This document shows, one piece after another, positions 33 through 44,913 of a stretch of DNA of 57,417 nucleotides (position 1 is its first letter; the number at the start of each line of letters is the position of its first letter). The position numbers and the translations under genes are program-made. The stretch lies in the NCBI GenBank assembly GCA_040220235.1, contig JAVJTO010000046.1, one strand, 5' to 3'. This DNA is from Coleofasciculus sp. B1-GNL1-01. Its GTDB lineage: Bacteria > Cyanobacteriota > Cyanobacteriia > Cyanobacteriales > Coleofasciculaceae. The notes below the pieces were generated by a model. It saw only the letters and a list, made by a program, of their open reading frames with translations, was not told where the DNA came from and did no database searches.

Positions 33-2390
33 TTGAGTCAATCCCAGGGGTATGGGGTTCCCAGTCGGGAAGTACGGAATAAGATTCGGCGGAGTCTGTT
101 TGGCAATTTGGAACAGACGCCTGTGCAGATGCAAGAGGAGGAGGTGAGACTCAAGTCAGATGCGGGCGAAGGGGTGATACAGGAAGGGAATTCTCCACAA
201 GAACAGGAAGCTGAGTCGCAACAGGAAACTTCTCATAAGAAAAATGTGAGGCTAACAGATATCAGCACCAAGTTTTTAATGGATGTGGATGGGGATGGAG
301 AAATGGAGCAGAAACGCCTATTCTTTACAGGAGAAGGAGAGCAAGCGCATCTCATGCTCAATCCTGAGCCAATTCCATTTTTAGACTTCCTGAACACCCA
401 ACAAAGTATTAGCAGTGACCAAACAGTAAAAAAAATCGTTAATCACATAAGACAAGAAATAAAAAAGAATATAAGCCAGGAAAGGGGAAAAGAAATAGCC
501 AGCAAACTGCAAGAACTAGCCAATTATTTATCCAAAAATTATAATGTTAGAAGACCTCCATCTTTAGTATCGTTCGAGACAATAAAAATCAGTTATAACA
601 ACAAGATCAGCGAATACGTAACCAAATCACTGAAAGCTCAACCATTAAGTTCTAATCCCGGGAAAACGGTTGGTTCAGGTGTGCAGCAGCCGAAGACCGA
701 ATTGATGACCGAACTGCGGAAATGGGCGCCCTATGTGCGTGGTCATATGCTAAATGCGAAACTTCATGGACCAGGAGAGGATAAAAATTTAGTTCCAATA
801 TCGGTGCCATTTAACAAAAAAATGGAGACCGAAATAGAACACAAACTAAAGCAAGAAGTCCTCGGAAATAACAAGGTCGTTTCTTACACGATAGAACCCC
901 AAAATTGGGGGAAATATCCCGGGGCAAAAAATGCCAAGGCAAATAATGTCCAGAATATATTACCAGCAGAGTTTAAGGTAGAAATATATACAATGCGTCT
1001 AAAGAAACTAGGCGCGGATGGAAGCAAAGAAGAAAACTGGAAAAAAGATAAACAGCCAATACTTGATAAAGAATTCACACACGATCAACCAACACAAACC
1101 AACTTCAACTACGAAGAAGACCCAAAAAAAATATTACCGGGATATGGAGAAATGAAGAGTGGAGTCTTATATGAAAATCCCGTTCACCAGGGAAGATGGG
1201 TGGTGCAAGGAGAAATGCGTTGGCGTAGTTATAGGGGGACGGAACAAATAATATCCTACCCCGACCCCGTCATACTTACCGCCTCCCAGCAAAAGGGAAC
1301 GGCGACAATGGAACAAAATGGGAACGACCTAATAGTAAAATGCGATGACGCAGCCAAAAAGACAGTAAAAAACCATAAAAAAGAACGGATAAGTAATATA
1401 AATAATCTGAAGAAACGAACACAAGAAATAAGTGATTCCCTCAAAGATCAAGAAAACAAAACGGAGGTGATAAAAAAACGATTAGATAAAACTAAGACAA
1501 GCGTAAAGGAAATAAACGATATAGCAACCGGGAATGAAAAAGCGGACGAAGAGGATAAACTATATCAACTCCGACAACAAAATGAAACGATGCGAAACAA
1601 AGTGCAAGGACTCACGACTTCAATATCAAACCTCGAAAGCGAGATCAAGCAGTTTTGGGAGGAAATGGAAAGTTTGGTCAAAAAAAATATAAGCCAATTC
1701 TGGAATGAACAACAAAACCGGGAGGAACAGAACGAAAAAGAGTTGACCAAGAAGGATGAGCTGACTAATGAGATACAGGCAATTTTTTTCCAACTCCAAT
1801 CAGTCCAAACACAACTAAACCAACTAGAAAGACAAATAAAAGCAATGCCAAGGCAAATCCAGCAACCAAAGAGTAAAGCCAACGGACTAATAGGCATGGA
1901 CGATAACTATGGAAAAGAGGAACAAAAAGACCCAATGGAAATAGATGAAACAGACAACCAGCTAATAAAAATAGATATAGACGAAGAAAAATTTAGAAAC
2001 CTGCCAGAAATCGAATTCACTTACCACCAACAAAAAGCAGTTGGAGTTGGAAGTCGAACGGGAGACAGTAGCGGTGGAAAAATGAAACCGAGCAAAAGCA
2101 AAAGAAGATCGAAACCATATGAGCGAAACAGTACAATTTCTCATAAGGTGCGAAGCGCAGTAATTAACTATGTAACCCAAAAGGGAAACCAAGTTATATT
2201 AGAAAAAATCAATAAATCAAACAACGCTAATAAAATACAAGAATACAAAAACTATGTAGAATATCTAAAAAATGAAATTTCTAATGAAGGAGCTATAGAA
2301 CAATATAGCAAACAAGAACAAACAGAACTAACAAACGACCTCAAGACAAGGTTGGAAGATAAGGCAGAGGAGCTAAGCGGCAATAAATAA
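33..2390 (+). CDS. Large toxin-like protein with a DNA/RNA non-specific endonuclease (His-Me finger) domain and a long coiled coil; probably 5'-truncated by the window edge
   Basis: YVRGHMLNAKLHGPGEDKNLVPISVPFNKKME matches the RGH..(G)GP...NL.P....N endonuclease motif. The frame has no stop from base 3, so the gene may start upstream. Heptad-rich region at about aa 440-610. Confidence 0.65.
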   Translation: MSQSQGYGVPSREVRNKIRRSLFGNLEQTPVQMQEEEVRLKSDAGEGVIQEGNSPQEQEAESQQETSHKKNVRLTDISTKFLMDVDGDGEMEQKRLFFTGEGEQAHLMLNPEPIPFLDFLNTQQSISSDQTVKKIVNHIRQEIKKNISQERGKEIASKLQELANYLSKNYNVRRPPSLVSFETIKISYNNKISEYVTKSLKAQPLSSNPGKTVGSGVQQPKTELMTELRKWAPYVRGHMLNAKLHGPGEDKNLVPISVPFNKKMETEIEHKLKQEVLGNNKVVSYTIEPQNWGKYPGAKNAKANNVQNILPAEFKVEIYTMRLKKLGADGSKEENWKKDKQPILDKEFTHDQPTQTNFNYEEDPKKILPGYGEMKSGVLYENPVHQGRWVVQGEMRWRSYRGTEQIISYPDPVILTASQQKGTATMEQNGNDLIVKCDDAAKKTVKNHKKERISNINNLKKRTQEISDSLKDQENKTEVIKKRLDKTKTSVKEINDIATGNEKADEEDKLYQLRQQNETMRNKVQGLTTSISNLESEIKQFWEEMESLVKKNISQFWNEQQNREEQNEKELTKKDELTNEIQAIFFQLQSVQTQLNQLERQIKAMPRQIQQPKSKANGLIGMDDNYGKEEQKDPMEIDETDNQLIKIDIDEEKFRNLPEIEFTYHQQKAVGVGSRTGDSSGGKMKPSKSKRRSKPYERNSTISHKVRSAVINYVTQKGNQVILEKINKSNNANKIQEYKNYVEYLKNEISNEGAIEQYSKQEQTELTNDLKTRLEDKAEELSGNK

Positions 2391-28848: not shown

Positions 28849-31800
28849 ATGGCTCTGATGAACGTAAATATGATGAGTATGCGGTTGTGTTTGGTTAGTG
28901 GGTTAGTGATTAAGCTGGGCGTTGGTATCTTTTTCAACCCAGTGTCGGCTCAGATTATCCCAGATGCTACCTTGGGGAGTGAAGGATCTCGCTTTATCGA
29001 AAGTGTAGAGTTTGATCGGATTGAGGGTGGAGCAGCGCGAGGGGTCAATTTGTTCCACAGCTTTACTGAGTTTAACGTATTAGACGGACAACAGGTTTAT
29101 TTTGCTAATCCTGGCGGGATTGAGACTATCCTGAGCCGGGTGACAGGGGGGAATGGTTCGGATATTTTCGGAACGTTGGGGGTATTGGGAAATGCGAATT
29201 TATTTTTAGTTAATCCCAATGGGATTGTGTTTGGACCGAATGCGCGGCTGGATGTGGCGGGTTCGTTTGTGGCTTCGACGGGAAATGGGTTTAATTTCTC
29301 GGATGGGAGTAGTTTTAGTGCGACGAATCCCGAAGCGCCGCCGTTGTTGACGATGAATGTTACTCCGGGGTTGCAGTATGGAGCGAGTCAGCCTCAAGCT
29401 GAGATTATTAATCAGGGAAATTTAAGGGTAGGGCAAGATCTTACTTTAGTCGGGAATCGTCTCAGGTTATCGGGTCAGCTAGAAGCGGGGAGGGATTTAA
29501 CCCTGTTGGCAACGGATACGGTAGAGATTCGAGATAGTGTGAGTAATCCGTTCATTGCTAAGGCGAGTGGTGAATTGATTGTGCAGGGGAATGAGACAGT
29601 TGATATTTTTGCCTTGAATCATCCCGATAGTGGGTTGTTTTCCGGTGGGGATATGGTGCTGCGTTCCGCTAATCCTGTAGGTGGCGATGCTCATTACTGG
29701 AGTGGGGGGAGTTTTCGGATTGAGCAGTTGGATAGTAGTCTGGGGAATTTGTCAAGTCCTAATGATCCGGTGATTCGGGCGAGTGGGGATGTTAGTTTTG
29801 ATAGTTATGAGGGGGCTTCCTTACATATTTTTGCGGGTGGTAGCGTCACGGTTGAAGATAATATCACGATTAATGATGTGGACGCTGAGAATGGAATTGT
29901 AGAGACAGTTACTCTCTCTGATGGGACAACTGTGGAAGTTGATGGTAAGAATGAACCGACGCTGGATATTCGCGCGGGAACAATTGCGTTTGGGACTCCT
30001 GGAAATCCTGACAATGTTAACGTTAATAATCCTCCAGGTATTAACGGAACTGGGACAAGCGCGGATATTAACATTGGCAATATTAATATCAACGAGTCCG
30101 ATGGTCTCGTCTTATTAACTAATCAGTACAACCCCAATACCTTACCTGGAAATATTACCGTTGATTCAATTAGTACCAGTAGTTCTTCAGGGAATAGCGG
30201 CTCAATATGGATCGACTCTCGCGGCGATATTACACTCAACAAATCGATAGATTCCTCTATAGAGGAATCTATCGATAACGCCCTTGATAGTGAACTTTTC
30301 CTATTCGACAGCAAGGGTAACTTACTGACGGAAAATGATGATTCTTCGACGGCATTAGGTGAAGGGGGAAGCACTAGCGGTTTAGACTCTTATATTGATT
30401 ACACCTTCAATCAAAATGGAGAATATATTATTGGAGTGGGACAATTTCCATCAGAGGGCACGCAAGGGGGAGAAATGCCAATATCAGGTACTCCACTCAC
30501 AGGAAATTCAAAGTATACTCTCCAGGTTTCGATTGAAAATCATGCTCAAGGTTCAGGCGGCAGTTTAACAGAAAGTGAGCCAAATAACTCTATCCAAGAA
30601 GCACAGAAACTAGATTCATCCTTTTTACTCCAAGAGAATCCAAATGTTGAGTCATCTGATACAATTCCCCATGTATCCATTGATGGTACTGGAGATAATA
30701 CGTTTGACTACTACTCCTTTGAAGTTAAAACACCAGGGAGTCGAGGGATTTTCGATATTGACGACGACAACACTAGCGGTGGGAATGCTGGAAATATTAC
30801 CATTAATGCAGCGGGTTCTGTCTTGCTTAAGGGGAGTAGCATTTCCGCTTCTTCGTCGCGTAGAGTAGGCAACGGTGGTAATATTGCGATCGCAGCAGGT
30901 AACTCTGTCCGCTTAACAGAGGGAGCCACCTTAGAAGCTCAAACCAATGGTAGCGGAAATGCTGGAAGCGTTGTAGTGCAAGCACTGAACGGGGGTTCCG
31001 TTTCTTTAGAGAACAGCCGAATTTCAACATCTGTGCAAAAAGGGGCAAGTGGTGATGGTGACAATATTCGGATTGAAGCTGGGTCAGTCTCTTTAAGCGA
31101 TAAGGCTTCTATAGAAGCTATAAATAACGGTTCTGGCGTTGGCGGTAACATAGACATTACCGCTAACACTGAGTCAGTTAACTTAACTGATAACGCTCAA
31201 ATCAATGCTAGTACTTTCGGTCAGGGAAAAGGAGGCAGCGTAACTATAAGGGCAATAAGCGGTTCCGTTGCGATCGCGAACAGCAGCAACATTAGCACCA
31301 CTGTAGAATTAGGCGCAACTGGGTCTGGTGGCAGCATCAACATTACAGCAGGAGCGGTTTCACTGACAGGAGGTTCTCGACTCGAAGCGCAAACTCGCGG
31401 ACAAGGAAATGCTGGCGATATCCAAATCAGTGCCTCAGATAAGGTGGAAATCTCCGGCACGAGTCAATTTGGACTATCGAGCGGATTGTTAACCTCTACT
31501 GAAACTGCAAATAGCGGTGAGGGCGGTAGTATTTCCGTTAGGGGACTGCCAAACGATCCGTTGGATATCTTGCGCGTATCTAACGGGGGCTTCTTAAGTT
31601 CTCGAACGAACAGCATATCTACTGGTGGCAGTATAACCGTTAATGTCAATCAACTGGAAGTGATGAATGGCGGACAACTCATCACCTCTGCCTTCAGCAG
31701 TGGAGACGCTGGTAATATTACGGTTAATGCCGCTCAAAGCGTCCTCCTCTCCGGCAGTAATCCTAACTTTAAGGAGATTGGCGACAATATAACCGCAAAA

Positions 31801-33114
31801 GGTCGCGGTACGGTTGGCGAACAAGAGGGTAATGATTCAATTGATAAAGCCCAAGTTATCCCATTGGACAACTTCTCGCTGCAAGATAATGATGACATTG
31901 AATTCTCTAAGGATATTCCCCACATCTCTATCTCTGGCACTGGTGACGGCACCTTCGACTACTACTCCCTTGAAGTTAAAACACCAGGGAGTCGGGGGAT
32001 TTTCGATATTGACAACACTAGCGTTGATACTGAACTGTTCCTCTTCGACGAGTCAAGAAATTTGCTAGCAGAAAATGATGATTCTTTAACCTCATCGGGT
32101 GGAGGTGGCAGTAGCAGTGGGCTTGAATCGTATATCAGTTATACGTTTGCAACGCCTGCTACCTACATCCTCGGTGTTGGCAGATTCAATTCGGAAGCTA
32201 ACAATCGCACCATCGAAGGTGAGCCTCTAAAGGCAGGGGATAGCTATACACTCCAGCTATCGCTCGACAATCGCAATGTTAATCCTAATCAAAGCCCAAA
32301 CAGTGGTCTATTTGCTCAGTCTCAAGGAACAGGACAGGCAGGAAGTATAGAAATTACCGCCAACCAAGTCTTGCTCGACAACCAGGGAGAACTTAACGCT
32401 CGCTCCAAATCAGGTACAGGTGGCAACATTAACCTACAGGTAAACGATGTATTGTTGATGCGTAACAACAGCCTGATATCTGCCACAGCAGGTAATAACG
32501 GCGATGGCGGCAACATTAATATTAATGCTGGATTTATTGTTGCTGTTCCTTCCGAAAATAGCGACATCATAGCCAACGCCTTTCAGGGAAGTGGGGGACA
32601 AATCAACATCCAAGCCAATCGTGTATTTGGTTTCAATCTGCGGCGAGAACGGCTTTCTGTGGAAACTCTTCGTAACAATCGCACTAACGACATTAGCGCT
32701 AGTTCTGAATCGGGTCCTCAAGGAAACATTAACATCCAAGCTCTTACCACCGACCCCAGCCAGGAACTAATCGAACTCCCCACCGACACCGCCGCCCCCC
32801 AACTCGACCAAACCTGCTCCCCAACCGGAAGCGGTAAGAATGAATTTACCGTAACTGGACGCGACGGACTCCCCCCTAGCCCCACCGATATTCTCACCCC
32901 AGAACAACCGCTAGCCGACTTAGGCACACCCATCAATAACACCGCCACCCAGCCAACCCCAACCCCAACTCCCCCCGCTTCCCCCAAACCCATCGTAGAA
33001 GCCCAAGGCTGGATTATTGACGAACAAGGTAACATTACCCTCGTCGCCAATGTCCCAACCGCCAATTCCCAGGGAGCATGGCAACCTCAAGTATCCTGTC
33101 AGGGAGGGCGCTAA
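28849..33114 (+). CDS. Filamentous haemagglutinin-family (TpsA-like) exoprotein with two inserted PPC/DVUA0089-like modules
   Basis: Signal peptide ending AQIIPD; NLFHSFTEFN...ILSRVTGG...NLFLVNPNGIVFG haemagglutination-activity domain; G.AG.I.I.A beta-helix repeats; cyanobacterial C-terminus TGR.GLPP.P...EAQGW. Confidence 0.92.
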   Translation: MALMNVNMMSMRLCLVSGLVIKLGVGIFFNPVSAQIIPDATLGSEGSRFIESVEFDRIEGGAARGVNLFHSFTEFNVLDGQQVYFANPGGIETILSRVTGGNGSDIFGTLGVLGNANLFLVNPNGIVFGPNARLDVAGSFVASTGNGFNFSDGSSFSATNPEAPPLLTMNVTPGLQYGASQPQAEIINQGNLRVGQDLTLVGNRLRLSGQLEAGRDLTLLATDTVEIRDSVSNPFIAKASGELIVQGNETVDIFALNHPDSGLFSGGDMVLRSANPVGGDAHYWSGGSFRIEQLDSSLGNLSSPNDPVIRASGDVSFDSYEGASLHIFAGGSVTVEDNITINDVDAENGIVETVTLSDGTTVEVDGKNEPTLDIRAGTIAFGTPGNPDNVNVNNPPGINGTGTSADINIGNININESDGLVLLTNQYNPNTLPGNITVDSISTSSSSGNSGSIWIDSRGDITLNKSIDSSIEESIDNALDSELFLFDSKGNLLTENDDSSTALGEGGSTSGLDSYIDYTFNQNGEYIIGVGQFPSEGTQGGEMPISGTPLTGNSKYTLQVSIENHAQGSGGSLTESEPNNSIQEAQKLDSSFLLQENPNVESSDTIPHVSIDGTGDNTFDYYSFEVKTPGSRGIFDIDDDNTSGGNAGNITINAAGSVLLKGSSISASSSRRVGNGGNIAIAAGNSVRLTEGATLEAQTNGSGNAGSVVVQALNGGSVSLENSRISTSVQKGASGDGDNIRIEAGSVSLSDKASIEAINNGSGVGGNIDITANTESVNLTDNAQINASTFGQGKGGSVTIRAISGSVAIANSSNISTTVELGATGSGGSINITAGAVSLTGGSRLEAQTRGQGNAGDIQISASDKVEISGTSQFGLSSGLLTSTETANSGEGGSISVRGLPNDPLDILRVSNGGFLSSRTNSISTGGSITVNVNQLEVMNGGQLITSAFSSGDAGNITVNAAQSVLLSGSNPNFKEIGDNITAKGRGTVGEQEGNDSIDKAQVIPLDNFSLQDNDDIEFSKDIPHISISGTGDGTFDYYSLEVKTPGSRGIFDIDNTSVDTELFLFDESRNLLAENDDSLTSSGGGGSSSGLESYISYTFATPATYILGVGRFNSEANNRTIEGEPLKAGDSYTLQLSLDNRNVNPNQSPNSGLFAQSQGTGQAGSIEITANQVLLDNQGELNARSKSGTGGNINLQVNDVLLMRNNSLISATAGNNGDGGNININAGFIVAVPSENSDIIANAFQGSGGQINIQANRVFGFNLRRERLSVETLRNNRTNDISASSESGPQGNINIQALTTDPSQELIELPTDTAAPQLDQTCSPTGSGKNEFTVTGRDGLPPSPTDILTPEQPLADLGTPINNTATQPTPTPTPPASPKPIVEAQGWIIDEQGNITLVANVPTANSQGAWQPQVSCQGGR

Positions 33115-33144
33115 TGTAGAGACGCGCCATGGCGCGTCTCTACA
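33115..33144. repeat. Perfect 30-bp REP palindrome TGTAGAGACGCGCCATGGCGCGTCTCTACA
   Basis: Read directly; related copies at 25649, 28524, 42218 and 45943. Confidence 0.95.
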
Positions 33145-33196
33145 GGATAGGCAGTTAGAATAGACGCCAACCAACCTGCAAAACCCGACAAAACCC

Positions 33197-33421
33197 ATGA
33201 ATTACCAAGACATCATCACCTTAGAATCGGGAAAACGTGGCGGTAAGCCCTGCATTCGAGGGATGCGAATCACCGTCTACGATATTTTAGAATACCTCGC
33301 ATCCGACATGAGTCAAGAGGAAATTCTAGAAGACTTTCCCTATCTGACTCAAACCGACATCCTCGCTTGTCTTTGGTTTGCTGCTCAACGCGAACGCCTT
33401 ACCGTTACCGTTCAACGGTGA
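33197..33421 (+). CDS. DUF433-family antitoxin
   Basis: GKRGGKPCIRGMRITVYDILEYLA...EEILEDFPYLT..DI.ACL signature. Confidence 0.92.
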   Translation: MNYQDIITLESGKRGGKPCIRGMRITVYDILEYLASDMSQEEILEDFPYLTQTDILACLWFAAQRERLTVTVQR

Positions 33422-33458
33422 AACGTCTCCTGTTCGATGGAAGGCAACTTGATATAAA

Positions 33459-36209
33459 ATGTCCAAATTCAAACCAACCCGCCGCCCAAAACTGCACAAA
33501 CTCCTGTGCTACGTTGGCATGGGTCTCAGTCTCACCCTGCTGAGATTCTACCTAGACTGGACACCCGCTACCGCCATTGTCCCCCAGACAGACACACTGA
33601 CACCCAATACAACTCATTTAACCTCTCCCCCAGCATCCCTGATTCCCCCCAACCCCCCTCGTTCCCTTGACTCACGGGATCTGGAAAACCTCTCTCCTGC
33701 AAGGAGAGAGGCTTTGAATCCTCCCCCCTTCCCTACCTCCAACAACGCCCTCACCCTCTTCCAACAAGGCAAAACCTACTATCAAGCTGGACAATTTGCC
33801 GCCGCCCTAGACGCTTGGCAACAAGCCGCTAATGCCTACCAAACTCAAGGAGAACCCCTCAACCAGGCAATGACATTCAGCAACCTGGCACTCGCCTATC
33901 AGGAATTGGCAGAATGGAATCAAGCCAATCACGCCATGGCTCAAAGCTTCGCCCTCCTAGACACCCTCCCCGCCAATACCCCAGAACATCTCCGGGTTCA
34001 GGCACAAGCCTTCAACACCCAAGGCACCCTGCAACTGGCTCAAGGACAACCCGAAGCCGCCCTGAAAACCTGGCAGCACGCCAGCCAACTCTACCGCCAA
34101 ATCCCCGACGAACCGGGCATCATTCGCAGCCAAATTAACCAAGCCCTCGCCCTGCGAGCCTTAGGGCTATACCGTCGCGCCCGCAACACCCTAGTGCAAC
34201 TCGAAACCACCTTACCAACCCAACCCAACAATCCTCTCAAAGCCGCCACTTACGCCAACTTAGGCAACCTACACCGCTCCCTCGGACATCCCCAAGACGC
34301 CCAAGAAACACTCCAGAAAAGCCTGGATATCGCCCGCACCCTCAACTCCCCCGCCGATATCAGCGCCGCCTTACTCGGCTTAGGCAACACCGCTCGTTCC
34401 CAAGACCAGAATGAGCAAGCCATCGACTACTATCAACAAGCCGCCGCCAGCGCCATTTCCCCCAATGCACAATTTGAAGCATCTGTCAATCAACTCGACC
34501 TACTCCTGGAAACCAACCAAAGGCAACCCGCCACTACCTTAATCCCCCAACTCCAGGAACTCGCCCAAAACCTACCCACCACTCGCCCCGCCATCTATGC
34601 CCAAATCCACTTTGCCCAAACCCTCACCCACCATCAAACCCAACTGAAATCCACCCTATCTGCCCAAGAAATCGCCCAGATTCTCGCCCACGCCCAACAG
34701 CAGGCACAATATCTCAACGACACCGTAGCCGAATCCTATGCCCTCGGCTACCTGGGACACCTCTACGAAACCGCTCAACAATGGCAGGACGCCGAAACCC
34801 TCACCCGACAAGCCTTGGCACAGGCAAAAAACACCCCAGAAGTCGCCTATCACTGGCAGTGGCAACTGGGACGACTCTTAAAAGCACAGCATCAACTCCA
34901 AGCCGCCACCAACGCCTACACCAGCGCCTATAAAACCCTGAAACTCCTGCGAGGAGACTTGGTTGCTGCCAACCCCGATATCAAATTTACGTTCCGAGAC
35001 GAAGTTGAACCCGTCTATCGGGATCTCGTAGACTTACTCCTGTCCGGAACCAGCGAACCTAGCCAAGATAACCTGAAACAAGCCCGTGAGGTGATGGAGA
35101 CATTACAGGTGGCAGAACTAGAAAACTTCTTTCAATCCGCCTGTTTGGATTCAACGGTACAAGTTGACCAAGTAGTCGATGAAAAAGACCCAACGGCTGC
35201 CATTATTTACCCGATTGTACTGGAAGACCGCATCGAAGTCATCCTCAAGTTACCGGACGAAGCCAATCTGATTCATTATCGCTCCCCTGACTTTGACTTA
35301 TCCCGGAAAAAGGTGGAAACCACTGTAAAACGATTCCGCAGCAATCTCCAAGATCCTTTCACCCACCCAGCTATCAAAGAGGATGGGCAAACCCTCTACA
35401 ACTGGTTAATCAAACCAGCACGCCCTTACCTGGAACGCCATGGGATTAAAACCCTAATTTTTGTCCTGGATGAACCCCTGCGGAACATTCCCATGGCAGC
35501 GCTTTACGACGGGGAAAAATATCTGGTTCAAACCTATGCCACTGCCCTATTAATGGGGCTAGAAGTGCGGGATTCCCATCGGCTAGAGCGAAACCGGATG
35601 GATGTACTCGCCGCCAGTCTAACTGAACCGCCGCCACAGGTGGGTAACTTCGCCACGTTAGTCAATGCCAATCCCGAGTTAGACAAAATCAAAGCCGCAG
35701 GCATTCCCGTTACCTTCATCCGAGACGAAGATTTCACCGAAACCGCATTAGAACAACGCCTAGAGCGCTCTCATTTCGACATCGTACACCTAGCCACTCA
35801 CGGTCAATTTGGCGACAAACCAGAAGACACCTTTATTCTCGCCGCTGACACGAAGATCCTCTTAAACCAATTCAGCCAATTATTTCGCCGCCAACAGTCC
35901 ACCACAACCCAAGGGATTGAACTCCTCCTGCTCAGTGCCTGCCGCACCGCCACAGGCAGCAATCGAGCCGTACTGGGAATTGCCGGAGCCGCGATTCAGG
36001 CAGGAACAAAAAGTGCGATCGCGTCTCTCTGGAGTTTGGATGATCTCTCCAGTGTTACCTTCACCGAAGCCTTCTACCAACACTTAGGACAACCGGGAGT
36101 GTCTCGCGCCGAAGCCCTACGACGAGCGCAGCAGGCGATGTTACAAGATGCCAACTACCAAGCCCCCCTCTTCTGGGCTGCCTATGTCTTAGTGGGCAGT
36201 TGGTTTTGA
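33459..36209 (+). CDS. TPR-CHAT domain protein (caspase-like C14-clan protease), probably exported
   Basis: N-terminal signal-like segment, many TPRs, and CHAT motifs LRNIPMAAL, HLATHG (His), LLLSAC (Cys), ASLWS and WAAYVLVG.W. Confidence 0.93.
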   Translation: MSKFKPTRRPKLHKLLCYVGMGLSLTLLRFYLDWTPATAIVPQTDTLTPNTTHLTSPPASLIPPNPPRSLDSRDLENLSPARREALNPPPFPTSNNALTLFQQGKTYYQAGQFAAALDAWQQAANAYQTQGEPLNQAMTFSNLALAYQELAEWNQANHAMAQSFALLDTLPANTPEHLRVQAQAFNTQGTLQLAQGQPEAALKTWQHASQLYRQIPDEPGIIRSQINQALALRALGLYRRARNTLVQLETTLPTQPNNPLKAATYANLGNLHRSLGHPQDAQETLQKSLDIARTLNSPADISAALLGLGNTARSQDQNEQAIDYYQQAAASAISPNAQFEASVNQLDLLLETNQRQPATTLIPQLQELAQNLPTTRPAIYAQIHFAQTLTHHQTQLKSTLSAQEIAQILAHAQQQAQYLNDTVAESYALGYLGHLYETAQQWQDAETLTRQALAQAKNTPEVAYHWQWQLGRLLKAQHQLQAATNAYTSAYKTLKLLRGDLVAANPDIKFTFRDEVEPVYRDLVDLLLSGTSEPSQDNLKQAREVMETLQVAELENFFQSACLDSTVQVDQVVDEKDPTAAIIYPIVLEDRIEVILKLPDEANLIHYRSPDFDLSRKKVETTVKRFRSNLQDPFTHPAIKEDGQTLYNWLIKPARPYLERHGIKTLIFVLDEPLRNIPMAALYDGEKYLVQTYATALLMGLEVRDSHRLERNRMDVLAASLTEPPPQVGNFATLVNANPELDKIKAAGIPVTFIRDEDFTETALEQRLERSHFDIVHLATHGQFGDKPEDTFILAADTKILLNQFSQLFRRQQSTTTQGIELLLLSACRTATGSNRAVLGIAGAAIQAGTKSAIASLWSLDDLSSVTFTEAFYQHLGQPGVSRAEALRRAQQAMLQDANYQAPLFWAAYVLVGSWF

Positions 36210-36235
36210 GTGATGAGCCTTAGGTTCGGTGATCG

Positions 36236-36496
36236 CTATTTTGAGCCTAATAGCTTGTCATATTCCGCGTGTGTTCCGATCCAAAACCAAACTAGATCAT
36301 TATCCTGCTTGACTGCAATCGCTCTGTAGTTTAAACCGACTCTAACCGACCAAAACCGACCAACTTTCTTCAAATGTAGTGAGGGATATCGAGGATCTTG
36401 TTTGAGCAGCTTGTAACATCTATCGGCAAGGTCTTGGATGTCAGCGGGTAGCTGTCGATAATAATACCAAAAATCGGGGGTGGCGCGGTGTTTCAC
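36236..36496 (-). CDS. RelE/ParE-superfamily toxin
   Basis: FW..Y.QLP..IQ..A...Y.LL..DPRYPSLHLKKV...WSVRVGLNYRA...WFWIGTHAEYD; 4-nt overlap with the upstream gene. Confidence 0.85.
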   Translation of the reverse strand: MKHRATPDFWYYYRQLPADIQDLADRCYKLLKQDPRYPSLHLKKVGRFWSVRVGLNYRAIAVKQDNDLVWFWIGTHAEYDKLLGSK

Positions 36497-36699
36497 AAAT
36501 CAGTACATTTTCCTTTTCGTAAATCTTGTAAGGCTTTGTCGGCTAGTGCATCGAGCCTACCCGCCGCAACATCTGTCTCAAATTGCCGATCCCAATTGAT
36601 TGCATCAAATTCAGCAAACCAAGTCCTAAATTTTACCAGATCTTCATCCGAAAGCTGACTGATCGCCAGTTCAATTTTCCTTAAGTCACTCTTAGTCAT
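36493..36699 (-). CDS. Putative cognate antitoxin
   Basis: 68 aa; IE.AI.QLS.E....FR.WF.EFD...WDRQ.E.D...GRLD pattern; translationally coupled to the toxin. Confidence 0.8.
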   Translation of the reverse strand: MTKSDLRKIELAISQLSDEDLVKFRTWFAEFDAINWDRQFETDVAAGRLDALADKALQDLRKGKCTDL

Positions 36700-36789
36700 A
36701 AGCCCTATTTTTTTATAAATCTTCTTAAATTATAGGGGTTGCCACTAAGGTTAGGACATCGTGAACGGCTGAAATCGAACTCAGGTTAA

Positions 36790-37560
36790 CTAATCCGAGC
36801 TTGTTTCTGCTAAAGGATTAAGTTGAGTGACAGCCGCATCAGCAACGCCTTCTAGCTTAAAATAGCCCAACAAACTCATCCAAGGCTCTGCATGGACAGA
36901 GCGATGCCAAGCTAACTGCGTCAGCGCTTCCTGAGAAATACCATGGTCTAAATACGCCCGATATTGCTCAGATTCAGGTAAAGTTTCTAACTGCCGAACC
37001 AATTCAGAACTCGCTTCCACCCGTTCCACCCAACCACTAACCCATGGGTTTCTTGAGCGTTCCTGCTCATCGCATAGGACTTGGAAAAACCAATTGTACC
37101 GTTTGCCCACTTCTAAAGGCGGTTCAGTCTCCGGCAATTTCACGCTAACAATCCCCGGCGCATCTGGTAACGCCATCGTTTGGTCGAGGACAAGCCGTTG
37201 ATTTTCATCAAATAGCACGAATCTTGCTTTTGTAATCGTCTCCGAATGATCCAAAGGTAGGTAAAACCAAAGAGTAGGATAGGCAGAAACAGTTGTCCCC
37301 AAATTGTCCGCCGAAACTAGAGCCGTTAACGGCTGGCTAGTCACAGAGACACAGAATTCATCCCGCATCGCTGTACCCCGGGCTCGCCCCGAAGCCCTCC
37401 CTTGTTTGCGCTCCCGGCGAAACAAATTCACAATCCGCTCTCCCACCGATTGCGCCTGGGCTGGGGGATTGTCGAAGGGTAGCACCGACAGGAACAGCAC
37501 TGTACTTAAGGTCAAAATCAGGACGCTTTTGCGATCGCGTGATAACCAGCTCATCTCCAT
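36790..37560 (-). CDS. DUF928 domain protein (secreted/periplasmic)
   Basis: Signal peptide; LTALV....GTTVSAYPTLWFYLP...PGIVSV.LP....PLEVGK.YNW.F...C...V.GWVERV signature. Confidence 0.88.
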   Translation of the reverse strand: MEMSWLSRDRKSVLILTLSTVLFLSVLPFDNPPAQAQSVGERIVNLFRRERKQGRASGRARGTAMRDEFCVSVTSQPLTALVSADNLGTTVSAYPTLWFYLPLDHSETITKARFVLFDENQRLVLDQTMALPDAPGIVSVKLPETEPPLEVGKRYNWFFQVLCDEQERSRNPWVSGWVERVEASSELVRQLETLPESEQYRAYLDHGISQEALTQLAWHRSVHAEPWMSLLGYFKLEGVADAAVTQLNPLAETSSD

Positions 37561-37584
37561 TAACTCCTAACTCTGCATTGATGT

Positions 37585-40500
37585 CTAAGCTTGTCGCCGC
37601 CGATAGGTCAGATAACCCACACCGCCTCCAGTCACCACGATGGCAATCGCCGACGGTACCAACGGCACCCAAACGCCTTGGCTGACCAGAATCAGGTAGC
37701 ATAAACCATACAAACCGACCACTGTACCCACAGCACCAGCAGCCCCTTGCGCCAACGAGCGAGAACAGAACCAGATAACCAAACCTCCAACGGTAGACCA
37801 GCCAAAAATCCACAATGTTTCGCCCCAAAGCGGTAACCACCAAATTAAAGGACGCTGATCTAATACCGCACTGATAAGTTGGCTTGCCATCTGAGCTTGC
37901 ACCATCACTCCCGGCATATTACCGTAAGGAGTATTCCAAAGGTCAGCCCTTATATCTGCCGTGTCCGTGTAACCAATAATCACAATCCGGTCTTGAATGT
38001 CTGCGGCAGATACCTTGCCATTGAGAACATCTTCTAGGCTAACCGTTGGCGCAAACTTGTTGGGGTCACCTTGGTGGGCGCGGTAATTGAGTAAAGTTTG
38101 ATAACTTTCTAGTTGATCATTTCTACCTAGGTAAGGACTACCATTTCCCCAAAGTTCCGGGATTGCCGTCTCGCCAAACTGCATATCTCGCACATAGTAC
38201 CCTTCACTATTGAGGGGAGAGGTATAAGAAATCCCTTCTGCTTCCAGATACTTACGAGCCAGAACTAAGTTCAATGCCTCTGGCGTGTTGCAAAACCTTG
38301 GGTCGGGTTCCTGCAAGAGCAAGTGACGGCGCAACATCATCTCACCATCCTCAGAGGCATCATTAAATCCAATACGCTCCATCGGAACTTCACTGGGGGG
38401 AGGAATACCCGGTCTCGGATTGCCCTGTTCATCGTCATAACTCGCTTTACAAAGCGCAATCAGGTTCTGCGTTTGCCGGAAACGTTTCGCTAACTCTGGC
38501 TGTGCCTGAAAATCTCGGTAAAAATCTAAGCCAATCAGTCGGGGTTGATGTGCCGATAACTTAGCTAAAACCTCATCTAAAGCTTTGTCAGGGATTGTGC
38601 CAATTCCCGGCTGATAACGCCCCTCAATTATGTCTTGCCGGAGTGCCTCACTACTGGCAGCATCCACCTCGACGATTAAAAAACGCTGATCTTGAGGTTC
38701 ACTGGGACGTAACCGCATTAACTGATCATAGACTCTCAGTTCAGCCGACTCCATCCCACCCAAAAACCGAGCCACAACCACCAGCACCGAAACGAAAGCA
38801 CTCGTCAACACCACCGAACGCCGCTTAATTTTGCGATAGGGCAGTTCTCGGCTAGCTTTAATATAGTCTAGTTGTAGCGCCGTGGGCTTCGGTTGCTTGT
38901 CGGCTGATTCCTGTAACCATTGCTTAGAGGCGACTAAATCTTTCCCTCGCAGCAAAAAGCTATCATCCTGTCCCTTTTGTGTCCACTCCATCGCCTTCAC
39001 CAGCAGCCGAGTGTGAGTGCGTGTATAGTCCGGATCACTATCTAGCGTCCGGATTAATTCGCCAAAATTGGGTAAAAATTCACCGCCGTGTTTACGGAAA
39101 TCAATCCAGTGGGCGTTCTCTAAAGCCAAGGGAAGTTCGGCTGTGGCTGTTTCTTGATGCAAGATGGCAACCGTTCGTTTATTCAGCGTCTGGGCATAAG
39201 CTAACTCCTTAGCCACATCAGCATCGTTAACAAAAGGAAGAGAAATCACCGCGACAATTGTATTAGCTCGTTCAATACCCTTAACCCGTTCAATACCCTG
39301 ATCAATGACTAGCTGCAAGGCAATGCTGTCACTTCCTGAAGCTCTATCCTGGGGCAAGTCCGCTTGGGTAGAAATACTTTCCTGGTCAAACCACGTCGTT
39401 TTACCCTGCATCTGCAACGCATCATTCAGCTTACGCACAAAGTCTGAGTCAGCATCAGAATAGGAAATAAACACATCATGGGACACTTCCGGCGGCTGTC
39501 GCAGACTTTCAGTGATAAATTCTTCGTGCCAAGCTGTTGGCTGATGTTGAGTCCTCTTTTTCGCCACCTGCAACCAAGCTTCAGCACGGCGCAGATTATA
39601 CCCCCGCAGTAAAATACTGGGGTTGCGGTTCTGCTGCTGCCACTTGAGCGCCTTAGCTAAGAAAATCTTATGCTCGTGGTAGTATACTGCCTCGTGATCC
39701 AGTATGTTGATCAGTTGGCTTTCATCAAGACGGTAATCTTCTTCGTGTAGATTATCAGTCAGATCAATATAATGTAACGAGCGCAATTCTGGCGGGATTT
39801 GCTCCGGCTCAACAGGACTCACCAGCACAGGGATAATCCGCTTATTCAGCGCTAAAGCATAGTTTAATTCTTGCTGACAGTAGGTGGAGTTCAAGGAGTC
39901 AGGTGAGAGCAAATAGACTAAGTTATCTGCTTGGGCTACACCCTGCTTAATCGCTGCCTCAAAGGTTTCCCCTGTTTGAATATCAGCGGTATTCGTCCAA
40001 ACTGTAAATCCTGCACGCCACAGACTGGTGCGAATCTGCCGCATCACTGCCTCATTTTCGTAGGCATAGGAGAGGAACACCTGAGTCATCAGGTTATAAG
40101 CATTTTTGATACTTTCGCTGATAAACTCACAGTGTAAATCTGTGGGAGTACAGGGGGGCTGCTCGTCTTTAAAGCGCACCTTCAGCCATGCTTCGGCTTG
40201 CTTTCGTTCCTCACCAATGAGTAAATCTTGTGATCTCTTGTGCTGCCGTTCCCAGGCTAGGGCTTTATCTAAGAAATACGTGTGCTGATGTACGTAATCC
40301 TTGTGCCTTGCGAATAGTTCTAGTAATCCGGAGAACGACTGCTCAAAGTCGTCAATTCCCTCACGAAAATACACCCAATTAATTTTGCCAATTGCCGGAT
40401 GCATATTGGGAAAGCTGGAATGCAGTCCCTTTGCTTGGTAAGCATCCCAGTCAGCATCCGTTCCTTGGGGATTCCGTTGTTGCCAGGTATCACGACTAAT

Positions 40501-40803
40501 CTGTTCGACGTGCAGCAACGGGATAATCCGCTTGTGGTACTTAATTGCCAGTTCGATTTCTTTACGGCAGTAGGCGGAGTTGATCGAATGGGGAGCAATG
40601 ATGAACAGGAAGTTATCCGCCTTCTCAATCCCATCATCAATTTGGTTTTGAAAATCTACGCCCAGAGGAATATTTTCAAAGTCAAACCAAATTTTTAAGC
40701 CGTACTCAGTCAGGTGTTGATAGAGCTTTATGGCAAAGGCTTTACTATCGGCTCTTCCATAGGAAATAAAGCCATTGTCAAAGCCGGGACGCGGTTCATA
40801 CAT
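37585..40803 (-). CDS. Triple-TIR / CHASE2 membrane protein
   Basis: Three TIR units (FISYGRAD..SAYCRKEI; FLSYAYEN..STYCQQEL; FISYSDAD..DVAKEL); TM at about aa 663-682; CHASE2 (ELRVYDQLMRLRP, IGLDFYRD, IGFND, RIVIIG, PGVMVQAQM.SQL); three C-terminal TMs. Confidence 0.9.
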   Translation of the reverse strand: MYEPRPGFDNGFISYGRADSKAFAIKLYQHLTEYGLKIWFDFENIPLGVDFQNQIDDGIEKADNFLFIIAPHSINSAYCRKEIELAIKYHKRIIPLLHVEQISRDTWQQRNPQGTDADWDAYQAKGLHSSFPNMHPAIGKINWVYFREGIDDFEQSFSGLLELFARHKDYVHQHTYFLDKALAWERQHKRSQDLLIGEERKQAEAWLKVRFKDEQPPCTPTDLHCEFISESIKNAYNLMTQVFLSYAYENEAVMRQIRTSLWRAGFTVWTNTADIQTGETFEAAIKQGVAQADNLVYLLSPDSLNSTYCQQELNYALALNKRIIPVLVSPVEPEQIPPELRSLHYIDLTDNLHEEDYRLDESQLINILDHEAVYYHEHKIFLAKALKWQQQNRNPSILLRGYNLRRAEAWLQVAKKRTQHQPTAWHEEFITESLRQPPEVSHDVFISYSDADSDFVRKLNDALQMQGKTTWFDQESISTQADLPQDRASGSDSIALQLVIDQGIERVKGIERANTIVAVISLPFVNDADVAKELAYAQTLNKRTVAILHQETATAELPLALENAHWIDFRKHGGEFLPNFGELIRTLDSDPDYTRTHTRLLVKAMEWTQKGQDDSFLLRGKDLVASKQWLQESADKQPKPTALQLDYIKASRELPYRKIKRRSVVLTSAFVSVLVVVARFLGGMESAELRVYDQLMRLRPSEPQDQRFLIVEVDAASSEALRQDIIEGRYQPGIGTIPDKALDEVLAKLSAHQPRLIGLDFYRDFQAQPELAKRFRQTQNLIALCKASYDDEQGNPRPGIPPPSEVPMERIGFNDASEDGEMMLRRHLLLQEPDPRFCNTPEALNLVLARKYLEAEGISYTSPLNSEGYYVRDMQFGETAIPELWGNGSPYLGRNDQLESYQTLLNYRAHQGDPNKFAPTVSLEDVLNGKVSAADIQDRIVIIGYTDTADIRADLWNTPYGNMPGVMVQAQMASQLISAVLDQRPLIWWLPLWGETLWIFGWSTVGGLVIWFCSRSLAQGAAGAVGTVVGLYGLCYLILVSQGVWVPLVPSAIAIVVTGGGVGYLTYRRRQA

Positions 40804-41026: not shown

Positions 41027-41890
41027 TTAAGCGGCGCTAATGGTTGCATGGAGAGAGGGGTGTTCATGTTCAACCACAAACACATTGGCATAAAGGTTCG
41101 CCACAATTTGCTTACCCTCTAGCGTCAACTCTAAGTAGCGCAATGAGTCCTTAATGTAGGGATACACCCCACTCCAGTAAAACTTGGAATAGTTTTGGCG
41201 CAAATCCCCTGGATGGCTATAGCCTAAGGCTTTATTCACACCCGTTTCTTCAAACTCGTAGTACAAGGCACTAATTTTTTTCAAGTAGCGCGGATCACTG
41301 AGTTGACCAATTAAATCGGCAGACCTTACTAAACCGGGACAGTTACTTGTGTCTAGGTGATCTTGATCACTGGGTACGGGAAAACGAGTGAGTTCAATAT
41401 TCCGCTTAATTTCTTCAGCGTCAATCAGTAAATTGCCACCAAACCGTTCTTCAATAAACAGCTTACCGCGATCAACGTGATAGGGGGTGAGGCTGGCATC
41501 TGTCGCCCCTGGTGGTAAACTCACCTTGTCCCCATCTACGCCTGTGGCATAGCGGTTTTCACTTAAGCGGTCTTGTCGGCAGACTCCTTTAACGTAACCA
41601 ATATCATGGCAGAGTAAGGAGATAATCGCATGCATCCAGTCTTCACAGGAAATGCCTCCTTCACGGATATGTTTACCGCGCAGAATTTCCTGTCCGACTA
41701 AGGTGACTAAAATGGTGTGTTCAACATTGTGGTAGAGAGCGTCACTATTGGCAATATTTTCTAATGCCATGCCGCCCGCCCAGCCGATAATGTCAGCGTA
41801 GTCAGACTTCCAGCCACCGTAAGTTCGGCTGTAGCCTTCCCGAATCCGATCCACAAAGTTGTCGATGAGTATTTGGGTTGTGTCAAACAT
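41027..41890 (-). CDS. HD-domain metal-dependent phosphohydrolase (cyanobacterial Npun_R2479-like)
   Basis: YHNVEHT, LLCHDIGY, YHVDRG and ADLIGQL motifs. Confidence 0.88.
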   Translation of the reverse strand: MFDTTQILIDNFVDRIREGYSRTYGGWKSDYADIIGWAGGMALENIANSDALYHNVEHTILVTLVGQEILRGKHIREGGISCEDWMHAIISLLCHDIGYVKGVCRQDRLSENRYATGVDGDKVSLPPGATDASLTPYHVDRGKLFIEERFGGNLLIDAEEIKRNIELTRFPVPSDQDHLDTSNCPGLVRSADLIGQLSDPRYLKKISALYYEFEETGVNKALGYSHPGDLRQNYSKFYWSGVYPYIKDSLRYLELTLEGKQIVANLYANVFVVEHEHPSLHATISAA

Positions 41891-43473: not shown

Positions 43474-43971
43474 TTAGCGGTTTTCCTGGACAATCGCTTG
43501 CACAATATCAATGGCATCGGCTGGGGTGGCTGCTACAAAAACTGTCTCCGGCGACAGGCTGGTAAAAAACTGTTGACTTTCGTGATGGTCGGACAATAAT
43601 ACCACAGGTTTACCACCCTTGAGGGCAAGAGCGATTTCAGAGGCGGTTCCTGCACCAATACCACAAGCAATCACTACATCACTGGAGAGAACGTTAATAT
43701 TATTTCGTCCACTTCCCATATCTGTCGCGATCGCAATATCCACAGCATCGGACATATTCTGAGTATCGCTGCTGGGTAAGATGCCCACGGTTAAGCCATT
43801 TGCTGCTTTTGCACCTTGACTTGCTGCATTCATTACTCCAGCATTTCTACCACCTGTCAGCAGTACCCATCCCTGCTGGGCGATACGTTGTCCCAATTCA
43901 TAAGCTCGTTCTAAGTCGGTGGCGGTAGCCCCTTTACCGGGTCCCATCACGCCGACAACAATTTTTCTCAT
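43474..43971 (-). CDS. TIGR00725-family SLOG/LOG-like protein
   Basis: VGVMGPG, LLTGG..GVM.AAS.GA, RNNINV and GAGTASE motifs; ATG at 43971 chosen because the longer ORF runs through a MITE. Confidence 0.85.
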   Translation of the reverse strand: MRKIVVGVMGPGKGATATDLERAYELGQRIAQQGWVLLTGGRNAGVMNAASQGAKAANGLTVGILPSSDTQNMSDAVDIAIATDMGSGRNNINVLSSDVVIACGIGAGTASEIALALKGGKPVVLLSDHHESQQFFTSLSPETVFVAATPADAIDIVQAIVQENR

Positions 43972-44055
43972 GGGTAGAAAGTATAGTTGGCTGAATACTG
44001 GAGTTATATCATTTTGGATTGTTTGTGTAACACAATGTCCTGCTCTAATTAGGGT

Positions 44056-44149
44056 TATAGCAGTCGCTAGGGTCATTAGGACATAAAATGAATGCCGTGT
44101 ATTTTTTTGAGGCAAGTTTAGTGTCCTAACCGTTGTGGCGGTTGCTATA
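44056..44149. mobile_element. 94-bp MITE with 28-bp imperfect TIRs
   Basis: TATAGCAGTCGCTAGGGTCATTAGGACA versus reverse complement of right end TATAGCAACCGCCACAACGGTTAGGACA. Confidence 0.7.
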
Positions 44150-44169
44150 TTTCCGTTATCGGTGAGAAA

Positions 44170-44233
44170 GGGCGGGTTTTGTTGTTCCGTTATCGGTGCA
44201 TAGATGACTTTAGTCCCTAAACCCGCCCCTACA
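44170..44233. repeat. REPIN-like inverted repeat
   Basis: GGGCGGGTTT...AAACCCGCCCCTACA. Confidence 0.85.
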
Positions 44234-44913
44234 GTAATGTTTTAACAACAGAGTTCATGAATTACGCGATCGCAACTTTACCTCCAATTCTGGTAGTTTG
44301 ACAAAAAAAAGCGATCGCCCTCTCTTGTTGAACAAGAATTAAAAGCGATCGCGCATTCTTATCTATCAGTGGCGTTGATTAAATAAAGACCCTTATCAAA
44401 CACGTCACTTGAATTTGAAAATGCACCCTAACATCCATCTGCTATCACTAAAGTTTCACTTACCACTATCTGTTCGTGTCGAGCTATTTTGTTCAACGAA
44501 TTGCTCCACTCAAACAGATTTTGCCGTTCTACAAAACTTTGTCTAGATTAAAAACACAAAGTTTGAACAACCTAACGGCTTGTTGGGTAAATGCGCCCTA
44601 TCTAAATATCGTCAACATCAATCGTCCACAGCAATGGAATTTTTTCTGCTTGTAAAAGTAAATTCCCTTGCTGTAATACATCCAAGTAACCTTCTTTAGA
44701 AGGAATATTAACTATGGTAGAAAAGGATACAATAATTGTCAACGATTTCGTAATACACTGTATTATTTCTTCGATTAAGTCGTCAGGACATGGACAAAGC
44801 AACAGGAAACGGGGAATAGAGAACAGTCAGAAGTTGACAATTGTTAATATTTCTTAATGTTTTATATCTAAAGACTGACCGATTTTTTCCAGATAGTCGG
44901 GGCAATTCATGAA

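Follow-up and report, generated by a model that had tools for sequence, protein, structure and literature searches.

The closest described counterparts of the system analyzed here are the Thoeris loci, among which type I employs a SIR2-SLOG effector, type III combines several TIRs with a SLOG effector, and type VII pairs a TIR with a SLATT protein and involves cyclic ADP-ribose (Yirmiya et al., bioRxiv 10.64898/2025.12.03.692087). In the accessible parts of the literature examined, bacterial TIR signaling is operon-encoded and anti-phage, and no membrane receptor with an outside sensor is described. Here we analyze a gene from a 57,417-nucleotide stretch of DNA of the mat-forming cyanobacterium Coleofasciculus sp. 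B1-GNL1-01 (assembly GCA_040220235.1, contig JAVJTO010000046.1; the whole stretch is hereafter called the window) that encodes three TIR units, each followed by a helical arm, then a transmembrane (TM) helix, a CHASE2 domain and three further TM helices. By analogy with the systems compared below, we consider it somewhat probable that the gene product is a receptor-gated, Thoeris-like TIR array that makes a messenger of the ADP-ribose (ADPR) type from nicotinamide adenine dinucleotide (NAD+), which would be read in trans by LSDAT and SLATT/TPR-S partners.

The likeness to Thoeris lies in the pairing of a catalytic-type TIR with SLOG-family and SLATT genes, and the best NCBIfam match of the receptor is the type III model ThcB4 (84.1 bits, below the equivalog cut-off of 220). 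Unlike in Thoeris, the TIRs are repeated in tandem within a membrane receptor that has a predicted extracytoplasmic sensor, the linked SLOG domain is a TRPM-type LSDAT, and the effector genes are usually unlinked. The neighbors of the receptor gene encode a DUF928 protein and an HD protein rather than an effector, although an effector gene adjoins in the related loci L042, L101, L112 and L167. The PF18185 profile (SIR2-SLOG, STALD; Thoeris type I) was unmatched in the host genome, as were the positive controls. By the tests run, the receptor is neither a Toll-like receptor (TLR), nor a STAND protein, nor operonic Thoeris; most likely, it would act as a signal generator of the Thoeris kind that is controlled by a transmembrane sensor.

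The ectodomain and the TM pattern are the same as in the CHASE2 receptors CyaD1, CyaD2 and CyaK of S. meliloti, which are described together with NsrA (PMC13001267), and Dgc2 of L. boryana (PMC10581220). According to the accessible parts of these reports, the signal to which the S. meliloti cyclases respond is a protein, and an envelope protein passes it on (PMC13001267), and CHASE2 receptors elsewhere govern symbiosis or motility (PMC13001267, PMC10581220); caspase-CHASE2 fusions have been reported as well (PMC2853523, PMC8195603). Whereas these other receptors act through a cyclase, kinase or protease, the output here is a TIR array. Toll, the TLRs and the IL-1 receptor (PMC7075850, accessible text) show the same succession of ectodomain, membrane and cytoplasmic TIR, to which the gene cassette described below adds a secreted protease and a small exported protein. 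The “Toll-like receptor topology” proposed in a preliminary description of this DNA, made from the sequence alone, is nevertheless a loose analogy: the orientation is opposite, with N-terminal TIRs, there are four TM helices, several TIRs with a conserved Glu at the catalytic position, and no match to leucine-rich repeats or Ig-type ectodomain. The TIRs of TLRs are adaptors, and the protease and small exported protein of the cassette invite an analogy with Spaetzle. With the cyanobacterial STAND receptors (nSTAND1 or AAA_35, arm, TM helix, and WD40 or CHASE2), the family probably shares the arm before the TM helix, and it has the same ectodomain repertoire, but it has no NTPase switch, and the TIR joins the arm directly in a unit repeated 1 to 7 times. 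Finally, the LSDAT linked to the receptor family can be compared with the MHR1/2 (LSDAT) ADPR sensor of TRPM2: it shares homology with the N terminus of animal TRPM channels but is a stand-alone domain, so that a channel, if there is one, would have to be provided separately by a SLATT protein.

The combination of TIR and CHASE2 has been recorded before, in a single paper among the literature searched. The main text of Kaur et al. 2021 mentions CHASE2 only for caspase (EACC2) fusions; “TIR+TM+CHASE2+CHASE2+TM+TM+TM” appears in its supplementary tables as a neighbor label in Alkalinema and Stenomitos, so that the architecture is already tabulated, and no discussion of it was found in the accessible parts of that study. 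The same tables include a Fischerella operon with caspase-CHASE2, “TM+beta_rich+TPRs” and “TPRs+CASPASE” that resembles the cassette. A WD40-CHASE2-DUF928 cluster is noted in PMC5587647, the sole mention of DUF928 found in the accessible texts. CHASE and WD40 do not occur in the accessible main text of Yirmiya et al. (bioRxiv 10.64898/2025.12.03.692087), whose supplementary tables may list such loci. No account of the tandem-TIR receptor family was found in the literature searched, including the accessible parts of PMC2853523, PMC7075850, PMC7159879, PMC6459960 and bioRxiv 10.1101/2023.05.26.542521 and the supplements of PMC7159879 and PMC7075850.

Domain architecture and predicted topology

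The preliminary description read the protein as TIR-TIR-TIR-TM-CHASE2-3xTM with a short basic tail, and this arrangement was borne out by Pfam, an AlphaFold2 (AF2) model, and hydropathy and charge. The elements of the receptor gene are as follows.

37585..40803, minus strand: receptor gene, (TIR-arm)x3-TM-CHASE2-3TM; open reading frame (ORF) of 1072 aa without internal stops (ORF, Pfam, AF2 model, hydropathy/charge)
40309..40779, minus strand: TIR1 (residues ~9-165), the most conserved unit; Glu82 codon at 40558-40560
40099..40305, minus strand: helical arm 1 (residues 167-235; arm profile), probable kin of the post-NTPase segment in cyanobacterial STAND receptors
39697..40086, minus strand: TIR2 (residues ~240-369; Pfam, family alignment), carrying Glu312
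39490..39690, minus strand: helical arm 2 (residues 372-438; arm profile)
39040..39477, minus strand: TIR3 (residues ~443-588; alignment and model), carrying Glu533 and divergent in this copy
38839..39036, minus strand: helical arm 3 (residues 590-655; arm profile), running into a basic stretch and then TM1
38758..38817, minus strand: TM1 (residues ~663-682), predicted to run from inside to outside (hydropathy/charge)
37834..38754, minus strand: CHASE2, predicted extracytoplasmic domain (residues ~684-990; Pfam and topology)
37606..37830, minus strand: three C-terminal TM helices (residues ~992-1066), then a short basic tail, predicted cytoplasmic (model and hydropathy)

Both profile searches that the preliminary description had called for succeeded: TIR_2 matched with 233 bits (cut-off 28; E 1.1e-69), spread over several stretches, and CHASE2 matched residues 673-1008 with 201.6 bits (cut-off 26.3; E 2.1e-59), flanked by one N-terminal and three C-terminal TM helices as judged from the profile match, TM pattern and charge bias. 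The AF2 model, built from a 40-sequence alignment (mean pLDDT 84.4; pTM 0.46, so that the relative positions of the domains are unreliable), contains three flavodoxin-like TIR folds with a helical arm after each, followed by TM1, CHASE2 and three TM helices. In Foldseek and VIA-align comparisons, the TIR folds matched TIR structures (Hydra TRR-2, Z 18.6; MyD88, 17.1; SARM1, 17.0); these searches used the whole receptor model, with CHASE2 not folded alone, and listed no structural match for the CHASE2 part.

The topology was derived from the family-mean hydropathy and the positive-inside rule. Residues 1-650 contain no TM segment in the family-mean hydropathy, and the family means of lysine plus arginine are 5.2 before and 0.2 after TM1, 1.7 in the loop between helices 2 and 3, 0.2 in the loop between helices 3 and 4, and 2.4 in the C-terminal tail. 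By this rule, the TIRs and the C-terminal tail are predicted to be cytoplasmic and CHASE2 extracytoplasmic, in support of the original proposal of an outward-facing sensor with the TIRs as the only recognizable output. The receptor has no Walker A motif and no NTPase match in Pfam, hence no P-loop STAND NTPase domain, and no SAVED, STING or cNMP-binding domain, as expected of a CBASS or Pycsar TIR effector, was found in it by Pfam; SAVED is unmatched in the entire host genome. Scans for promoters and terminators near the gene stayed at chance level (6 vs 6.8 and 4 vs 4.8, respectively), and a repeat scan found nothing linked to it. RNA libraries were rejected as evidence of expression: contigs of relatives span the locus in 3 of 4 runs but span intergenic stretches too, and come without strand or level.

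TIR units and helical arms

The motifs CRKEI, CQQEL and VAKEL place Glu82, Glu312 and Glu533 in one shared profile column, so that in this copy all three TIRs carry the Glu of the catalytic position on helix alpha-C, as originally claimed. Across the family, represented by an alignment of 76 three-unit TIR-CHASE2 proteins (2 N-terminally cut ones left out), this holds without exception in TIR1 only (76/76), compared with 71/76 in TIR2 and 61/76 in TIR3. Together with Glu82, the FISYGR-DS and W-x-D motifs of TIR1 are nearly invariant, and no other part of the protein is as well conserved as TIR1, in which 62% of the columns are at least 90% conserved vs 25% in CHASE2. This conservation supports strong selection on the putative active site of TIR1. 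Judging from the alignment, the three TIRs are not equivalent: TIR2 has W-T-N where TIR1 and TIR3 carry W-F-D, and TIR3 of this copy has lost the near-invariant P522 (73/76) and C530 (69/76) and has acquired an insertion (residues 474-501) modeled at pLDDT <50.

The linkers that follow the TIRs, described initially as the same helical element, are true repeats, scoring 93-104 bits against the family arm profile vs a maximum of 15.6 bits in 20 shuffled ORF sets. The arm could also be aligned with the helical segment that follows the NTPase in nSTAND1/AAA_35 receptors (hhalign, 75%, E 2.5e-5), and 10 of the 13 next matches to the arm profile were STAND proteins, at the same position after the NTPase; single arm-STAND matches fall within the shuffled range (best, 15.7 bits vs the shuffled maximum of 15.6). 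Because of the hhalign result and the matching position, rather than the single matches, which are not significant, the TIR linker probably corresponds to the post-NTPase segment of cyanobacterial STAND receptors. An ESM Atlas search with the arm returned TIR-family clusters only, all under 0.8.

Association with LSDAT, SLATT, TPR-S and patatin genes

LSDAT and SLATT were reportedly defined by Burroughs et al. in 2015, who are said to have linked the two and may already show TIR neighbors. According to Pfam, the neighbors of tandem-TIR genes include genes for LSDAT_prok, DUF4231/SLATT, TPR-S and patatin. A survey covered 123 tandem-TIR genes (89 clusters at 90% identity, 14 of them cut or of another type); CHASE2 forms were enriched in it by selecting 20 loci for the length of the ORF, and the flanks were often short. 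One or more of the neighbor types named lie within 6 kb in 5 of the 29 TIR-CHASE2 clusters and 13 of the 46 TIR-WD40 clusters.

The association is far stronger at the level of whole genomes. In one class-wide set of 401 genomes, the TIR block was found in 59 and LSDAT, the TRPM-type SLOG domain, in 107. All 59 genomes with the block encode LSDAT vs 48 of the 342 others; stratified by family, 35.2 of 57 would be expected. Within the 241 genomes that bear nSTAND1, LSDAT is present in 55/55 with the block vs 44/186 without it, and the difference holds in every size class; at the genus level, it is present in 33/33 genera with the block vs 20/80, and five genera have both double-positive and double-negative members. 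All 18 sampled genomes with a confirmed TIR-CHASE2 gene belong to the 59 and therefore carry LSDAT. SAVED, used as a control, is enriched but far from universal (8/59 genomes with the block vs 11/342 others). LSDAT thus tracks the TIR half of the receptor.

Among 20 LSDAT loci sampled from the 48 block-negative genomes, SLATT was near 11 and a single TIR-arm gene near 5; among 20 sampled from block-positive genomes, SLATT was near 3 and a TIR-arm-WD40 gene near 3. The SLATT profile is narrow, so that all these SLATT counts are too low. The host LSDAT, which matches the N termini of TRPM8 and TRPM2 (E 5e-10 to 9e-8), lies on contig G000:C138, where SLATT-TPR-S and SLATT-GH19 genes flank it; in TRPM2, MHR1/2 is reported as ADPR-binding (PMC13143021, accessible text). 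The locus (L086, 409-6324) encodes a SLATT + TPR-S protein of 1060 aa, the stand-alone LSDAT, and SLATT fused to a family-19 glycoside hydrolase; PADLOC models fit neither the LSDAT nor the SLATT-GH19 gene.

The TIR block as an exchangeable module

A protein search gave 1226 matches among 8000 scored candidates. Three units together with CHASE2 were found in 78 of the proteins examined, namely the 120 listed matches plus the query; a further 36 have five units, one has six, and 6 have WD40 instead. The organism names of the listed relatives are cyanobacterial in every case given: those at 90-95% identity are Coleofasciculus records, and others come from cultured Nostocales (Trichormus variabilis ATCC 29413, NIES-23); BAB77941.1 is presumably from Nostoc PCC 7120. 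Public records carry titles such as “TIR domain-containing protein” or “possible Sensor with Chase2 domain”. In a phylum sample of 301 genomes, for each of which two candidates were scored, the full-length form was matched in 5. The receptor is conserved yet patchy across cyanobacteria.

This wider family was missing from the preliminary description. The host itself (G000) encodes a TIR3-arm-WD40 paralogue that adjoins a CHAT gene (C167 21494-25624, L057) and two tandem single TIR-arm-WD40 genes beside a short DUF928 gene (C21 249-5779, L058). By profiles, the best 150 representatives at 50% identity comprise 93 WD40 forms, 17 CHASE2 forms and 40 with neither; Pfam analysis of 30 of these 40, which have long tails, identified Cache, FGE-sulfatase, TPR, WG-repeat, pentapeptide and divergent propeller domains. 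A TM-like segment separates the arm from WD40 in 57/59 WD40 forms, and in four loci (L165, L166, L175, L177), a TIR triplet is fused to a TM-Cache-like-TM sensor, with no other output. On a FastTree tree of 71 dereplicated blocks, 7 sensor changes were counted, whereas 500 shuffles of the labels never gave fewer than 19; therefore, kin share sensors, yet swaps have recurred, the tree giving no direction of change. CHASE2 forms group in well-supported clades of their own. Thus, the TIR block is an exchangeable module, followed by a TM helix and then by CHASE2, WD40, Cache, FGE-sulfatase, TPR or another C-terminal domain.

The CHASE2-DUF928-CHAT/TPR-TPS cassette

Downstream of the receptor gene are the members of a recurrent cassette that was likewise absent from the preliminary description.

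36790..37560, minus strand: DUF928 gene, 24 bp downstream of the receptor gene on the same strand (Pfam, model); signal-peptide-like N terminus
33459..36209, plus strand: TPR-CHAT caspase-like protease gene (Pfam), with the His/Cys motifs HLATHG and LSAC intact; hydrophobic N terminus
28849..33114, plus strand: two-partner-secretion (TPS; filamentous-haemagglutinin-type) exoprotein gene (Pfam/NCBIfam)

The DUF928, CHAT-TPR and TPS proteins all have hydrophobic N termini. In the host genome, which yields 23 CHASE2, 28 DUF928, 56 CHAT and 48 TPS matches, DUF928 lies within 6 kb of 16 of the 23 CHASE2 genes, and CHAT-TPR and TPS genes are often there too. The layout of an N-terminal output followed by CHASE2 and three TM helices is common in the host (9 of the 23 proteins: 3 with CHAT, 4 with AAA_35, one of them also with a cyclase, 1 with a cyclase, and the TIR array); 10 others have a C-terminal output and 4 none detectable by Pfam. 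Therefore, the TIR array is one of several outputs in this cassette. Across the host contigs that carry it (28849-40803 in the window), receptor outputs include cyclase, caspase-like CHAT, STAND NTPase, SpoIIE phosphatase and TIR; at L055 (3113-12743), a CHAT-nSTAND1-CHASE2 receptor is clustered with DUF928, a peptidase C25-like gene and a CHAT protein.

In the neighbor survey, DUF928 occurs within 6 kb in 22/29 TIR-CHASE2 clusters (18/21 of those with long flanks) vs 0/46 TIR-WD40 clusters, that is, DUF928 tracks the CHASE2 half of the receptor. The DUF928 model (pLDDT 83.4) consists of an Ig-like sandwich and helices, and in a comparison with 48,161 chains, it agreed best with the C-terminal domain of MtxA (Z 8.8, rmsd (root-mean-square deviation) 3.7, 143 aligned; next match, 7.0), which was also ranked first by Foldseek (PDB 4z29); an ESM Atlas search returned DUF928 clusters only. 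In magnetotactic bacteria, mtxA is followed by a CHASE2-adenylate cyclase gene, so that both genes adjoin one for a CHASE2 receptor; according to the accessible text of the same report, deletion of mtxA had no phenotype under standard conditions, and MtxA-CHASE2 binding is not reported (PMC4439547). MtxA differs from DUF928 in that the two share 13-15% identity and the Z score is modest. We consider DUF928 a candidate periplasmic partner that might bind CHASE2.

Proposed mechanism and alternative explanations

We infer the biochemical steps from Thoeris types I, III and VII, from the TIR-DrHyd-SLOG clade, a precedent described in the accessible text of PMC9503650, and from ADPR binding by TRPM2 MHR1/2. 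The receptor would be clustered or reoriented by an envelope cue that DUF928 relays and that might originate from the CHAT protease or the TPS exoprotein. The arms would couple this rearrangement to TIR assembly, part of which might be pre-loaded by the tandem TIRs, and the array, TIR1 above all, would convert NAD+ to an ADP-ribose-derived messenger. The host LSDAT with its SLATT, TPR-S or patatin partners would then read the messenger in trans, and the opening of a SLATT membrane pore or the activation of a lipase could result in the death or dormancy of a single cell of the filament, or in a graded ion signal. Such a response might serve defense against phages or predators, or else signaling at the envelope or upon contact.

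If correct, this scheme would extend TIR messengers to envelope sensing in multicellular bacteria, and bacterial LSDAT, the homologue of the TRPM channel N terminus, would gain a candidate upstream enzyme and ligand; NAD+ products would provide a direct readout for finding CHASE2 ligands, and DUF928 would gain a testable role. A bolder extension, which we hold to be rather doubtful, is that components found apart from one another in animals make up an entire immune pathway at the cell surface of filamentous cyanobacteria: DUF928, as an exported protein with an Ig-like fold, and a caspase-like protease that is secreted would trigger a TM TIR receptor from a family with interchangeable ectodomains, and a stand-alone homologue of the TRPM2 ADPR sensor would convert its ADPR-type messenger into the opening of a SLATT membrane pore.

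Several observations weigh against a messenger read by LSDAT. Given that SAVED is enriched as well, part of the LSDAT effect reflects general defense-gene richness; the genomes are kin rather than independent, so that P values overstate the association; and most of the co-occurrence signal stems from WD40 forms. The 48 genomes with LSDAT but without the TIR block also count here, as do the 15 of their 20 sampled LSDAT loci that have no TIR-arm gene within 5 kb; overall, most LSDAT loci have no adjoining TIR. At the receptor itself, no LSDAT or SLATT gene was seen alongside, the host copy being on another contig, and the scanned neighbors in the window include no known defense genes; only the five CHASE2-form clusters noted above have any effector gene nearby. 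The 13 pattern matches from viral contigs included no relative of the receptor, and most sister CHASE2 receptors of the host feed cyclases, kinases or phosphatases. Lastly, the Glu of TIR2 and TIR3 is lost more often in CHASE2 forms.

The lack of an effector gene at the receptor locus would also be expected if the activated receptor were itself the effector, draining NAD+ in bulk and thereby killing or arresting the cell without any messenger, with LSDAT co-occurring for other reasons. The tandem of three catalytic-looking TIRs would fit, as would the sequence matches to the NAD+-consuming TIRs Cat1, AbTir, SARM1 and TIR-APAZ and to the PADLOC TIR-SAVED and TIR-APAZ models. However, direct action leaves unexplained both the presence of LSDAT in 59/59 genomes and the TIR genes that adjoin LSDAT, SLATT, patatin or TPR-S in many independent loci, and we regard it as unlikely. 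The preliminary description had left the choice between NAD+ depletion and signaling of the cyclic ADPR type; signaling is favored, and bulk depletion less so, because the TIR block co-occurs with, and often adjoins, SLOG, SLATT, TPR-S and patatin genes.

The loss of Glu raises the alternative that CHASE2 forms, weak or in part inactive, would serve to tune WD40-form receptors through mixed TIR assembly, or would be relics decaying after fusion. In this comparison, the Glu is kept in all three units of 54/54 WD40 forms, compared with 30/30 (TIR1), 27/30 (TIR2) and 20/30 (TIR3) of the three-unit CHASE2 forms; TIR3 is divergent in this copy, and the host also encodes the TIR3-WD40 paralogue on C167. 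In addition, close Coleofasciculus relatives are shortened or broken (L003 10001-12091, L004 7521-10062, L005 10001-12426), the receptor either stopping near residue 696, just past TM1, or being split by another ORF after about 334 residues. Against this stand the Glu of TIR1, without exception among the relatives aligned, in the best conserved region of the protein, the well-supported clades formed by CHASE2 forms, and several genomes (e.g., G020, G446, G580) in which the CHASE2 form is the sole block match among the scored candidates, all of which make a tuner or a relic quite improbable. A scaffold in the TLR/MyD88 sense, with TIRs that only nucleate assemblies with other TIR proteins, several of which the host encodes, seems very unlikely: the top structural matches include the non-enzymatic TIRs of TRR-2, MyD88 and IL-1RAcP, but a fold match cannot tell enzymes from scaffolds, and catalysis is suggested by the invariant Glu, by the beta-A motif and by the association with SLOG and TPR-S genes of the nucleotide-sensing type.

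Other features of the window

Three neighboring elements were considered as parts of the system and set aside. A ParE-like toxin of 85 aa with an overlapping upstream ORF of 68 aa (36236-36699, minus strand), a toxin-antitoxin-like pair, occupies a variable slot, which in relatives contains a Uma2 gene or no ORF of at least 110 aa. The Npun_R2479-family HD gene directly upstream of the receptor gene (41027-41890, minus strand) is linked to it in Coleofasciculus loci only, and a SLOG cluster4 gene 2.7 kb upstream (43474-44115, minus strand), near the receptor in Coleofasciculus loci, was left out likewise. At the start of the window, an ORF of 785 aa (33-2390, plus strand) combines a weak match to DNA/RNA non-specific endonucleases with a coiled coil, in a region with a very strong A skew (0.4). 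A short repeat region at 44137-44234 has a very high depth of RNA-library contigs from many other places and is possibly a dispersed repeat or a small RNA.

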